From NCBI GenBank assembly GCA_000004985.1, contig GG739171.1: a DNA stretch of 4,849 nucleotides; one strand, given 5' to 3'. Position 1 is the stretch's first letter; each line of letters starts with the position of its first letter. The stretch is from Naegleria gruberi. Lineage: Eukaryota. The position numbers and the translations under genes were made by a program. The notes under the pieces were generated by a model, which was not told the origin of the DNA, did not search any database, and saw only the letters and a program-made list of their open reading frames with translations. This document shows, one piece after another, positions 1-4,849 of this stretch.

Positions 1-98
1 CATGAAAATTCTGGTTCTATTGCAAGTAAGATTAAATTTGATAGTGATGGAAAGAATCCTAGAGTTAGACTTGAGGAATTATTGGAAGCTTGGACTAT

Positions 99-716
99 TT
101 AATTTTGAATATTTGATTTTACACTCAAATATTTCCTTAAAAGCAATTCTGGATAACCACAAGTTAAAACCTGAGCATCCTGAGATGAGAGTGGTAGATC
201 CTTTTCAACTAGTTGCTTATCAATTTTTTTAAACTTTTTCTCTCCCTCAATATTTACTGATTTAAAATAAAGAGTTTCGTTCACATCCTCAAATTTCAAT
301 GAAAAGAAAGCAATCTCATAATTTCTATAATTTCTTCTAATTTTACAAGTTTTAGCTGAGACAACCCTGTGATGATTTGAACTGAGTGCCAGATCCGAAA
401 CTTGATTCATCTTTAATTGGTTCTCTATACTCTTGAGTAGATTATCCTGATCAGATAAATCAACCTTCTCTGAAAAACAGTGAATTTTCTTCCATTTTTC
501 AATGCCAGATTTCTTTCTCTTTTTACGAATTTTAATTTCAAATTGTGACATGTAAGCAAGTTTAATTCCAATAGTTTCGGGAATAACACTATTTCCCTCC
601 TTATCCACAACAATTAAATACACATCATTTTTCTCTTCCATTTTTTGATATTCAGTAAAGTTGTGATGAAACTCTTCGGAAGTGAGTGGTTTAAATCTTC
701 TAAATTCAAATCCCAT
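99..716 (-). CDS. Hypothetical protein, 205 aa, charged and lysine-rich with an NLS-like basic patch (KIRKKRKKSG); no family recognised
   Basis: Uninterrupted ORF. ATG at 714..716 (reverse strand) is preceded in the sense orientation by A9. TAA stop at 99..101 (reverse strand). It is the longest ORF in the 5' 700 nt. Two other ORFs overlap this span (2..232 plus strand, 425..613 minus strand) and are shorter and hydrophobic/low-complexity. A faint resemblance of residues ~12-45 to the N-terminus of SRP14 (L.SE.F...T......VYI..K) is too weak to call. Confidence 0.5.
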   Translation of the reverse strand: MGFEFRRFKPLTSEEFHHNFTEYQKMEEKNDVYLIVVDKEGNSVIPETIGIKLAYMSQFEIKIRKKRKKSGIEKWKKIHCFSEKVDLSDQDNLLKSIENQLKMNQVSDLALSSNHHRVVSAKTCKIRRNYRNYEIAFFSLKFEDVNETLYFKSVNIEGEKKFKKIDKQLVEKDLPLSSQDAQVLTCGYPELLLRKYLSVKSNIQN

Positions 717-1092: not shown

Positions 1093-1160
1093 ATGATCAA
1101 GTTGAATTTTTCACACACCCTTGTGAATTTCCACATATTCATTCTTCTTTCAATATATTA
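1093..1160 (+). CDS. 5' end of an ORF encoding a signal-peptide-like N-terminus (MIKLNFSHTLVNFHIFILLSIY...), truncated by the assembly gap; possibly exon 1 of the downstream alpha2-delta-like gene
   Basis: The first ATG in this frame is at 1093. The ORF track began the ORF at GTG 1084, which is a prokaryote-style start. A short polar n-region is followed by a hydrophobic h-region, as expected for a secreted or type-I membrane protein. It has the same strand and orientation as the alpha2-delta-like exons beyond the gap. Reading frame continuity across the gap cannot be assessed. Confidence 0.35.
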
Positions 1161-2686: not shown

Positions 2687-2796
2687 CAACTGGTGATGAT
2701 GGAATTCAAAAATATACTCCTAGAACAGCAGTTAGTATTGCTGAAGTTAGAGATTTAAGATGTGCTCTCCAAGATCTGAGATTTACTTATAGAGAT
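2687..2796 (+). CDS. Internal exon fragment (frame 1) of the alpha2-delta-like gene; 5' boundary lost in the gap
   Basis: Open frame from the gap edge (…TGDDGIQKYTPRTAVSIAEVRDLRCALQDLRFTYRD). It ends exactly at a consensus 5' splice site GTAAGT (2797..2802) in phase 0. Splicing to 2837 continues the frame-2 ORF whose product aligns with the VWA_N region of alpha2-delta. Confidence 0.5.
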
Positions 2797-2836
2797 GTAA
2801 GTTTTATCAAACACCCTAATAACCTTTTTTTATAAG
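2797..2836 (+). other. Spliceosomal intron, 40 nt (GTAAGT ... CTAAT branch-like ... T-tract ... AAG)
   Basis: GTAAGT at 2797..2802. CTAAT (CTRAY-type branch consensus) at 2816..2820, 15 nt upstream of the AG at 2835..2836. T7 tract at 2825..2831. Removing it joins frame 1 (ending 2796) to frame 2 (starting 2837) in phase 0. A second in-frame AG acceptor lies at 2847..2848, which would give a 52-nt intron. Confidence 0.5.
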
Positions 2837-4135
2837 GCTAAATATAAGGTTGACGACACTATCAGCCAAATTTATGTTGCTGGTGAATATGCTCCAATGA
2901 TAAACACCTATCCTGGATTGAATTGGAGATTTAATAAGTCACAATCATCATCAATTTGTCTTGAAAATGATGCATTCACCACTGCAACTTCTTGCTACTC
3001 TGGGTTCGAATACAGAAATAGACCATGGTTTATTTCAGCATCTTATGTATCCAAAAATATTTTTCTGATAATAGATTATTCGTCTGTAGTAATGAGAAGT
3101 AGTAATGGATATTCCAGAACAGTATCGGCCTTAAACAGCTTATTGAACTCCTTAAACGAGAGGGATAAGATAGCTGCTGTTCTTTTTACCAAGAAGGCAA
3201 TTATTTATCCAGGAAATGAAAAAACAGGCTTCCTGTTCGCAACTGACGCAACAAAATCAAGTCTACTTGATTGGATTTTGTCGCTCTTTGTTCAAACCTC
3301 TTCCACAACCAATTCCGGATCCTATCATACAGCTGCCTTTGAGACATCATTTGCGTTCCTTAAGCAATACTCAAGCTCATTGATTAATTGTGATACCTCA
3401 CTTGTTGTGTTTGGAGATGCTGACAATATCAAGGACGAATCAAATCCAGTCAACAGCTTACTTACTCAATATCAGTCACTATCGAATTATTTGGGTACTA
3501 GTTTTGTAAAGAAAGTTAGAGTATTTTCGTTCTCAGTTGGCATTCAAAAAGGGCAAGCTAACCCATTGAAATCCTATCCATGTCTAACAGGTGGGCTGTG
3601 GATACCACTGGATCCCTCTGACGCTTCCACAGAGCAAAGTTCTGATGTAAGAGGATTAATGAGTCCATTTTTTAGTTTTCATTCCTACAGAAGACTTGGA
3701 AAGAATGATATTATTTGGTCTAATTTCTATTCCGACTTGTTGGGAATTGGTAATATGACTACAGCATCCCTTCCTTGCTATTCTTCTGGTGGCATGTTTT
3801 TGGGTGTTGTTGGTGTGGATGTTCCAGCTACCTTATTCAACACAACCACATACCCTGATGCACATTCAGAATTCTCTAGGAGAAAAGTGTTATCAGATGG
3901 TGTTGGCTACTGTCCAGATGTAGATATTCAAGACTCATTCGTTGATGACCTTAGAGGAGGAGCTTGCAATTATTGCAACCAACCTTGTGGTAATCTTGCT
4001 GTAATGTTGGGGTTCATACCTGCTGTATTGGTTGCCTTTGTTGTTTTCGTGATTGTTTCGTTCTACTTTTACAAGAGGTCACTTATGAAGGCGGAAGGGG
4101 ATGACGAAAAAGAAGAAAAAGCCCTTGTAAAATAA
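2837..4135 (+). CDS. Terminal exon of an alpha2-delta-like protein. It carries the end of VWA_N, a VWA domain with a degenerate MIDAS, the start of a Cache-like domain, a Cys-rich stalk, one C-terminal TM helix and a short charged tail. The ORF-track version starts at Met 2897.
   Basis: Motif-level similarity to voltage-gated Ca-channel alpha2-delta subunits as I recall them. RNRPWF (3014..3031) corresponds to [17 protein letters not shown] (3059..3091) sits at the DxSxS MIDAS position (DVSGS in alpha2-delta-1). [11 protein letters not shown] (3509..3541) corresponds to [33 protein letters not shown] corresponds to [30 protein letters not shown] corresponds to LGVMGVDV. The hydrophobic stretch [26 protein letters not shown] (3995..4072) is followed by [20 protein letters not shown] and TAA TAA (4133..4138). 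The frame is open back to 2801, and 2837 is the proposed splice acceptor. Confidence 0.8.
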   Translation, partial: [432 protein letters not shown]

Positions 4136-4139
4136 TAAA
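4133..4139 (+). terminator. Tandem stop TAATAA overlapping a canonical AATAAA polyadenylation hexamer (4134..4139)
   Basis: Sequence gta aaa TAA TAA aaa ATG. AATAAA is read from 4134. The predicted cleavage zone 10-30 nt downstream falls inside the next ORF. Confidence 0.4.
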
Positions 4140-4141
4140 AA

Positions 4142-4849
4142 ATGTTAGAAGTTGAATTTAGCCATTCCGTTGTTTGTTTGACCAATGAAGAAATAATAGA
4201 AAACTCATTTGATAAACCAATACACACCCAACTAGGAAATGGGCAATTAAAGTTTTTAGATATGGAAGAAAAACTTAGTGTGATGAATCCAGGAGAAACA
4301 TGTGAGATTTTAACATTAGGAGAGGATCTTGTTAAATATAAAATTTCCATCAAACTATTACGAAAATATTCGAGTGATGGCAATGCTACGGAATGGGATT
4401 ATTCAGATGAAGAGAGCTACAATCTAGCTCTAAACAAAAAAGAAGATGGCAACTTATTCTTCTCTCAAAATAAGAATATTTCAGCTTCCAGATGTTATCG
4501 AAGCGGAATTAAACATGTGAGAAGGATCTCCAAATTGAAATGGGATTTAAATAATAGAAAGGCTAGGGATTTGTTGATCACTCTGTTCAATAATCTACTC
4601 ACATGTGAGTTAAAACTTAAAAGATACTCGAATGTTGTAAAGTTTAGTACTGAATGTCTTGATAATATCGGAGAAAATGTTAAAAGTTATTACAAAAGAG
4701 GTGAGGCAAATATGAATGATGGAAATTATTCTTTGGCTAATGAAGATTTCAGAAAAGCTAAAGAGCTGCTACTCACAGTTGATTCAAATGCTGAAATTTC
4801 TGTAATCAGTAAGGTTATTACAGGCTCTCCTAAGACTATGCAGCAGATA
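4142..4849 (+). CDS. FKBP-like (probably non-catalytic) + TPR co-chaperone-type protein, AIP/AIPL1/TTC9-like; 3' end truncated by the window edge (236 codons, no stop)
   Basis: ATG at 4142 is the first codon after the in-frame stops. The frame is open to the last base of the window. The C-terminal half matches the FKBP52/AIP-type TPR pattern. NVKSYYKRGEANMNDGNYSLANEDFRKAKELL corresponds to [31 protein letters not shown]. The preceding LFNNLLTCELKLKRYSNVVKFSTECL corresponds to [25 protein letters not shown]. The N-terminal ~85 aa (KPIHTQLGNGQLKFLDMEEKLSVMNPGETCEIL) resembles the distal half of an FKBP fold ([32 protein letters not shown] in AIP). Confidence 0.7.
   Translation, partial: MLEVEFSHSVVCLTNEEIIENSFDKPIHTQLGNGQLKFLDMEEKLSVMNPGETCEILTLGEDLVKYKISIKLLRKYSSDGNATEWDYSDEESYNLALNKKEDGNLFFSQNKNISASRCYRSGIKHVRRISKLKWDLNNRKARDLLITLFNNLLTCELKLKRYSNVVKFSTECLDNIGENVKSYYKRGEANMNDGNYSLANEDFRKAKELLLTVDSNAEISVISKVITGSPKTMQQI

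Follow-up and report, generated by a model that had tools for sequence, protein, structure and literature searches.

The last exon of a gene at positions 2837-4135 of a 4849-bp Naegleria gruberi scaffold (contig GG739171.1; the whole stretch is called the window below) encodes a single-pass membrane protein, conserved in Heterolobosea, that is very probably a minimal member of the alpha2-delta/CACHD1 superfamily of eukaryotes, whose members carry a VWA domain inside a Cache module. The window consists of AT-rich eukaryotic DNA (34% GC). A first-pass annotation made from the sequence alone had described the product as a short alpha2-delta-like protein with a partial Cache domain, a membrane anchor and a degenerate MIDAS (an adhesion site that depends on a metal ion), and the motifs it quoted were all recovered in place within 2837-4135. 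Taken as a whole, the explanation developed here is considered probable, with architecture and family assignment weighted most heavily over function.

The family assignment rests on homology extending across both flanks of the VWA domain. In phmmer searches against all PDB chains, the best pairwise sequence match of the window protein was CACHD1 (E=1.4e-11, query residues 57-382 against chain residues 191-520), and alpha2-delta-1 was matched at about 5e-7, a resemblance that, judged from the sequences, is far beyond chance. A profile of four orthologues searched against 1.84 billion representative sequences recovered 848 relatives at E<=1e-3 and 299 at E<=1e-10; among the best 150 of the 848, most are 400-780 aa in length, with a minority of 1000-1100 aa. 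A 76-sequence family profile matched CACHD1 at 2e-53 and alpha2-delta-1 at E=2.7e-76, in the latter case over residues 82-500 only, a span that takes in VWA_N, VWA and what remains of the distal Cache module. As in the alpha2-delta/CACHD1 superfamily, a Cache/PDC module thus encloses the VWA domain and the sequence is homologous on either side of it. The earlier proposal that this is a variant of the alpha2-delta/VWA-Cache family with a short architecture is borne out. Assignment to a different VWA family (ITIH-like, CLCA-like or integrin-I-like), with the alpha2-delta likeness confined to the VWA fold, was the outcome that the first-pass annotation had named as fatal to its view if profile searches found no VWA_N or Cache signal. 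Such an assignment has a very small probability, given that alignments extending to either side of the VWA domain were obtained with alpha2-delta and CACHD1 alone (315-319 residues versus about 175), that the family profile covers alpha2-delta-1 residues 82-500, and that it matches the two flanks separately in bacterial Cache sensors (PctA residues 85-125 and histidine kinase residues 109-170).

Curated domain models give a more graded picture across the family. Among 79 family members, Pfam detects VWA in 73, the first PDC (MCP-like_PDC_1) in 34, VWA_N in 26 and dCache_1 in 2. In the orthologues, MCP-like_PDC_1 remains below threshold; its best match, at E=3.4e-5, falls on the LGVVGVDV region and covers positions 64-110 of the 113 in the profile. 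The VWA_N domain proposed earlier is seen as homology only at the family-profile level (alpha2-delta-1 residues 82-250): PF08399 matches neither the window protein nor the three orthologues even at E<=10, and the region lies mostly within a run of undetermined bases (N-run).

Two AlphaFold2 (AF2) models were built with the family alignment, one of the full-length Willaertia magna orthologue (predicted local distance difference test, pLDDT, 83.2; predicted template modelling score, pTM, 0.81) and one of the window exon-2 protein (pLDDT 87.4, pTM 0.84); sheet pairing and pocket geometry were inferred from secondary structure and superpositions. A Foldseek comparison with alpha2-delta-1 gave E=4e-21. 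Both models contain two strands, the VWA domain, three strands and then helices only before the transmembrane (TM) helix, and in the window protein short helices bearing YRNRPWF precede the VWA fold at about residues 72-288. Since two strands before the VWA domain and three after it correspond to the strand count and order of a distal-type PDC, the Cache module is complete: what had been taken for a partial Cache is a single distal-type PDC module split by the VWA insertion. Whether this segment folds had been posed as a question for structure prediction, and the AF2 model of the window protein is a confident one. The parts of the gene are as follows.

1161-2686: run of N, 1526 bases, concealing the 5' part of the alpha2-delta-like gene
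2689-2796 (+): visible 3' end of the upstream exon, 36 codons (TGDDGIQKYTPRTAVSIAEVRDLRCALQDLRFTYRD), aligning with N. fowleri and W. magna
2797-2836 (+): spliceosomal intron of 40 nt, GTAAGT...AG, phase 0; the N. fowleri frame switch falls at the same position
2837-4135 (+): last exon, 432 codons and the first stop codon, one open frame starting directly after the intron
2858-3049 (+): N-terminal half of the Cache (PDC) module, strands beta1 and beta2 (AF2 strands 10-16 and 22-25), matched by the family profile to PctA dCache residues 85-125
3050-3700 (+): VWA domain, inserted in the Cache module
3074-3088 (+): MIDAS loop 1, D-Y-S-S-V
3314-3331 (+): SGSYHT, in which the loop 2 Thr position is Ser162 (3320-3322)
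3410-3427 (+): FGDADN, in which the loop 3 Asp is Asp194 (3416-3418)
3701-3838 (+): C-terminal half of the Cache module, beta3-beta5 (AF2 strands 293-299, 306-315 and 321-330)
3728-3730 and 3818-3820 (+): Tyr298 and Asp328 of the amino-acid motif, in the C-terminal Cache half
3800-3823 (+): LGVVGVDV block
3839-3994 (+): linker helix and four-Cys stalk (C359, C377, C380, C384), modelled by AF2 as helices 342-354 and 366-372 only
3995-4072 (+): single TM helix of 26 residues, from a hydropathy scan; the AF2 helix starts at residue 386 and the helix is kept in orthologues
4073-4132 (+): cytoplasmic tail of 20 aa, Lys/Glu-rich, followed by TAA TAA to 4138

The frame of this exon is closed by the two stop codons at 4133-4138. 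A public "predicted protein [Naegleria gruberi]", a partial model of 347 aa, is 100% identical to the last-exon product across its 347 aa. Upstream, the product of 2689-2796 forms helices leading into the Cache module, equivalent to helices 134-164 of the W. magna AF2 model, and the orthologue alignment places about 125 residues before the first visible N. gruberi residue. By comparison with the orthologues, the N-run probably holds a signal peptide, a long N-terminal helix and a Cys-rich region, together about 125 aa. The complete order from N to C terminus would then be signal peptide, long helix and Cys-rich region, distal PDC/Cache module interrupted by VWA, helix with four-Cys stalk, TM helix and tail.

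The window protein has no membrane-proximal PDC module, no second dCache_1 and no delta region. In place of the proximal module, the 56 aa between Asp328 and the TM helix form a helix and the four-Cys stalk, whose Cys-rich segment beginning GYCPDV spans 3905-3991 and whose motif RGGxCNYCxxPCG is conserved across the short-stalk subfamily. A canonical alpha2-delta subunit has a complete first dCache_1 followed by a second dCache_1 (VGCC_alpha2), whereas profile homology here ends at residue 500; likewise, dCache_1AA comprises distal and proximal PDC modules, whereas both AF2 models contain a single one. After the hydrophobic helix come KR and a charged tail of 20 aa, the arrangement of a transmembrane anchor and not of a glycosylphosphatidylinositol (GPI) anchor. 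No recognisable domain, and in particular no signalling domain, occurs in the tail.

The earlier statement that homology ends about 20 aa after LGVVGVDV agrees with the alignment to PDB chains, which stops 17 residues past the block, and the short form that results could conceivably be an artefact, namely a truncated model or assembly fragment of an alpha2-delta-like gene of about 1100 aa with its other exons elsewhere. The scaffold is just 4849 bp long with a 1.5-kb N-run, and the public N. gruberi model is a partial one, both of which would suit such a reading. However, the stalk, TM helix, tail and stop are all present, and the same ending is found in related genomes, in which a search for short orthologues had been suggested: N. 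fowleri (553 aa as annotated), W. magna (656 aa, full length) and a protein of an ENA contig (423 aa) all finish with LRGGxCNYCNxPCG, then a TM helix and then a charged tail that varies in sequence and in length (about 27-73 aa). In W. magna the gene consists of a single open reading frame (ORF) of 656 codons without interruption on a 355-kb contig; it has no intron at the position of the N. gruberi 2797-2836 intron, and its downstream neighbour is encoded by the other strand. In N. fowleri the gene lies on a 605-kb contig, and the next gene is an unrelated one of Syf1 type. More widely, 62 of 76 aligned relatives (395-772 aa) have a TM helix past the GVxGxD block, usually within 50-140 aa. 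Because the W. magna gene is a single ORF, the N. fowleri neighbour is of Syf1 type and an independent FKBP/TPR gene begins 6 nt after the window stop, there is no room for further Cache exons, and the three different downstream contexts exclude a conserved longer transcript, including the splicing to distant Cache exons that had been raised as the decisive counter-evidence. The artefact explanation is already largely refuted and retains only a slight probability; the protein is accordingly read as a complete short form, as first described, and not as a fragment.

The downstream gene occupies 4142-4849 (+) and runs off the end of the window, in the same frame as the alpha2-delta-like gene. Its product is a TPR co-chaperone of the FKBP4/5/8/AIP-like kind (FKBP4 is matched by phmmer at E=1.3e-9, and Pfam gives weak TPR and FKBP_C matches). 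Its ATG lies so near TAA TAA that either it is overlapped by the 3' untranslated region of the alpha2-delta-like gene or its true start is further downstream. Two ways of joining the two ORFs, read-through across the gap of only TAA TAA AAA and a micro-intron, were ruled out: the 22-nt GT..AG candidate would shift the frame into early stops, the downstream genes of the orthologues are unrelated, and the downstream ORF is an independent co-chaperone homologue.

The intron position is shared with N. fowleri, as determined by tblastn. The public N. fowleri model FDP41_004522 (4372-5832 of the locus on VFQX01000037.1) has an annotated intron that is too long and, as tblastn also shows, skips about 37 in-frame residues, which are conserved in N. 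gruberi and W. magna.

A further possibility is that the gene is a paralogue of XP_002681477, a Naegleria gene with an intact MIDAS, and is decaying towards a pseudogene; its own degenerate MIDAS and the lack of any curated Pfam match above threshold would suit such a reading. However, the ORF is intact, and comparison of N. gruberi with N. fowleri gave proportions of nonsynonymous and synonymous differences of pN=0.24 and pS=0.74 and, dS being close to saturation, a rate ratio dN/dS of about 0.08. The alpha2-delta-like gene is under purifying selection and is no decaying copy. In addition, conservation across genera extends to the cysteines, the amino-acid pocket and the residues critical for the fold, and the AF2 model is confident, so that decay of this copy appears extremely improbable.

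The Cache pocket of the protein is under strict constraint. The amino-acid motif (AA_motif) of dCache_1AA, defined together with the VWA insertion as Y121, R126, W128, Y144 and D173, uses R126 and W128 to hold the ligand carboxylate and Y144 and D173 to hold the amino group, and tolerates some variability (PMC8915833). Its importance is supported by mutants: D173A kills binding in PctA, and in alpha2-delta-1 R241A kills gabapentinoid binding and D491A abolishes the trafficking effect of gabapentin (PMC8915833). In the window protein, the motif's N-terminal portion, F-x4-R-x-W-F, falls within the first Cache half, with YRNRPWF at 3011-3031, and the pocket residues Arg62, Trp64, Tyr298 and Asp328 are invariant across all four orthologues.

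The MIDAS shows a different pattern. The loss of the fifth Ser claimed earlier is confirmed, the D-Y-S-S-V of the window protein standing opposite D-V-S-G-S of alpha2-delta-1 in the HMMER alignment. Of the downstream residues said to be retained, Asp194 is, whereas the homologous position of the Thr is occupied by Ser162 (SG-S-YH). The canonical combination of DxSxS, Thr and Asp found in alpha2-delta-1 and -2 is not present in the N. gruberi protein, and the four orthologues compare as follows.

N. gruberi: loop 1 D-Y-S-S-V, Thr position Ser
N. fowleri: loop 1 D-Y-S-S-V, Thr position Ser
W. magna: loop 1 D-M-S-S-V, Thr position Thr
ENA sequence: loop 1 D-Y-S-S-S, Thr position Ala

The site is thus imperfect in all four, with unlike lesions (DxSxV in three, Thr replaced by Ser or Ala in three) and the third-loop Asp kept throughout, whereas most relatives in the family alignment keep both a perfect MIDAS and the amino-acid motif. 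Weak metal binding by the residual site is possible, judged from the residues that persist.

The main rival to the explanation favoured here takes the VWA domain as a working metal-dependent adhesion site and the protein mainly as an adhesion or ligand-capture receptor, with the Cache module as a mere scaffold. Asp80, Ser82 and Asp194 are retained, Ser162 could replace the Thr, the VWA fold is predicted with high confidence, and the fully intact MIDAS of alpha2-delta-1 and -2 is, according to PMC9901441, not reported for alpha2-delta-3 and -4. However, Val replaces the fifth MIDAS Ser in all but one of the four orthologues, the variation at the Thr position suggests relaxed constraint, and paralogues of the same species retain a perfect DxSxS/T/D set; the invariant residues of the Cache pocket also argue against a purely structural role for that module. 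A receptor of this adhesive kind is judged unlikely.

The preferred functional reading is that of a ligand-binding partner subunit working without a canonical metal site, and its main basis is the combination of strict constraint on the Cache pocket with relaxed constraint on the MIDAS. The pocket would probably bind an amino-acid-like small molecule through the four conserved carboxyl- and amino-binding residues. The VWA domain, with its fifth Ser changed to Val and its Thr to Ser, would probably bind a partner without the canonical metal bridge, by analogy with CACHD1, which acts on CaV2.2 despite a disrupted MIDAS (PMC6231325). As the tail carries no cytoplasmic signalling or output domain, output is proposed to occur by lateral association with another membrane protein, such as a channel or receptor, whose trafficking or activity would be modulated. 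This inferred chain is advanced tentatively, as plausible but short of probable.

Several observations weigh against the explanation as a whole. The N-run conceals the N-terminal quarter of the protein in N. gruberi, and the curated Pfam models for VWA_N, VWA and Cache all remain under threshold on the window protein, where the scan found a weak VWA match (E=0.03) but no VWA_N or Cache match. Four of the five MIDAS positions still carry Asp, Ser, Ser and Asp. The first Tyr of the amino-acid motif is Phe57 in the window protein and Leu in W. magna, with the loss of one carboxylate hydrogen bond. Finally, a literature search for a Naegleria CaV channel or CatSper partner found no usable statement.

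Paralogues add a further dimension to this pattern. The N. gruberi paralogue XP_002681477/EFC48733.1, also of the short-stalk subfamily, has a perfect MIDAS (DVSSS, Thr, Asp), and its pocket Tyr is changed to Phe and its pocket Asp to Ala (LGVALAAISA). The binding sites may have been partitioned between the N. gruberi paralogues, the present protein keeping the pocket and XP_002681477 the MIDAS, as far as these residues indicate. Both sites are intact in W. magna KAL9650842 of the short-stalk subfamily, to which Percolomonas cosmopolitus A0A7S1KPW0 also belongs. Among the 76 relatives, two stalk classes are found, one of about 50-60 residues with 3-4 Cys and RGGxCNYC (the window type) and one of about 100-140 residues with 8 Cys; neither is detectably similar to the alpha2-delta proximal module, the family profile match ending at residue 500. 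Extra domains occur in few relatives (a C-type lectin domain in 4/79 by Pfam). It is conceivable, and at present a rather doubtful conjecture, that the Heterolobosean proteins, together with further protist relatives bearing the RGGxCNYC stalk, represent the true minimal alpha2-delta, consisting of one distal Cache module with its inserted VWA in place of a dCache_1, and would be a free-standing and possibly ancestral amino-acid-sensing partner subunit, its sites partitioned between the N. gruberi paralogues. If true, the partition would mirror the animal alpha2-delta versus CACHD1 divergence.

The remainder of the window contains several additional ORFs. An ATG-started ORF at 1093-1160 (+), MIKLNFSHTLVNFHIFILLSIY, has a signal-peptide-like start and enters the N-run in the frame of the visible upstream exon; that this ATG is the true start of the alpha2-delta-like gene is speculative, and the length of the N-run, 1526 nt where the orthologues need about 360 nt, counts against it. 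At 99-716 (-) lies a 205-aa ORF without a Pfam or PDB match, and an ORF entering from the left at 1-102 (+) ends RVRLEELLEAWTI*, its stop overlapping that of the 99-716 (-) ORF by 4 nt. These two are convergent genes with overlapping 3' ends, which illustrates the compactness of the genome. A ciliate genetic code, prompted by the AT-rich and compact sequence, was ruled out, since neither TAA nor TAG occurs in frame within the 432 codons and the DNA comes from Naegleria.

With regard to significance, the gene provides a compact and confidently modelled example of the common core of alpha2-delta and CACHD1 from a deep-branching eukaryote, and its ectodomain (about 500 aa by the orthologues) could be tractable for separating the roles of pocket and VWA domain free of the second dCache and delta. 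The public annotation is corrected at two points, namely the 347-aa N. gruberi "predicted protein" and the mis-spliced N. fowleri model. In addition, an earlier survey named a bacterial-type adenylate cyclase as the only Naegleria Cache protein (PMC4822843), a statement refuted by the present gene and its paralogues. In conceptual terms little is gained, because short protist single-Cache-plus-VWA proteins, Heterolobosea included, have already been published.

Among known systems, the closest counterpart is the class of single-dCache_1-plus-VWA proteins described in diverse non-vertebrate eukaryotes by Gumerov et al. (2022, PNAS, PMC8915833), who listed Heterolobosea among the groups with dCache_1AA. 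The N. gruberi gene most probably belongs to this class, with which it shares one Cache unit, an inserted VWA domain, a split amino-acid motif and an origin in a non-vertebrate eukaryote. As this short protist kind has been known since 2022 (PMC8915833), the gene is less unusual than the first-pass annotation implied. The published proteins are termed single dCache_1, that is, double-module, whereas the present models show only a distal module on a four-Cys stalk, and the MIDAS is degenerate; a single distal module on a Cys stalk in place of a two-module dCache_1 is, on the evidence of the models, a nuance that may be new to the literature.

CACHD1 (PDB 8s7c, 9eq6) resembles the N. gruberi protein in its VWA domain within Cache, disrupted MIDAS, type-I membrane anchor with cytoplasmic tail and lack of a GPI anchor. 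In contrast, it is about 1100-1270 aa long and has two complete dCache_1 domains with the amino-acid motif in the second (PMC8915833), whereas the N. gruberi protein has one PDC module with the motif in the VWA-split module, and its DxSxV differs from the DxGxS of CACHD1. Bacterial dCache_1AA sensors such as PctA (PDB 5ltx) share the PDC fold and the R126/W128/Y144/D173 ligand-binding residues but have two PDC modules and no VWA insertion, are flanked on each side by a TM helix and connect to a signalling domain in the cytoplasm. Alpha2-delta-1 (PDB 8x90_B, 7mix_D) differs in that its MIDAS is intact and forms a bridge to CaV alpha1, in being longer by about 600 residues (which make up the proximal module, the second dCache_1 and delta), in its alpha2/delta cleavage and in its GPI anchor. 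Since the proximal module, the second dCache_1, an intact MIDAS and a GPI-type C-terminus are all absent, the name "alpha2-delta subunit" is unsuitable for the N. gruberi protein, which is better regarded as a minimal VWA-in-Cache relative of both alpha2-delta and CACHD1.

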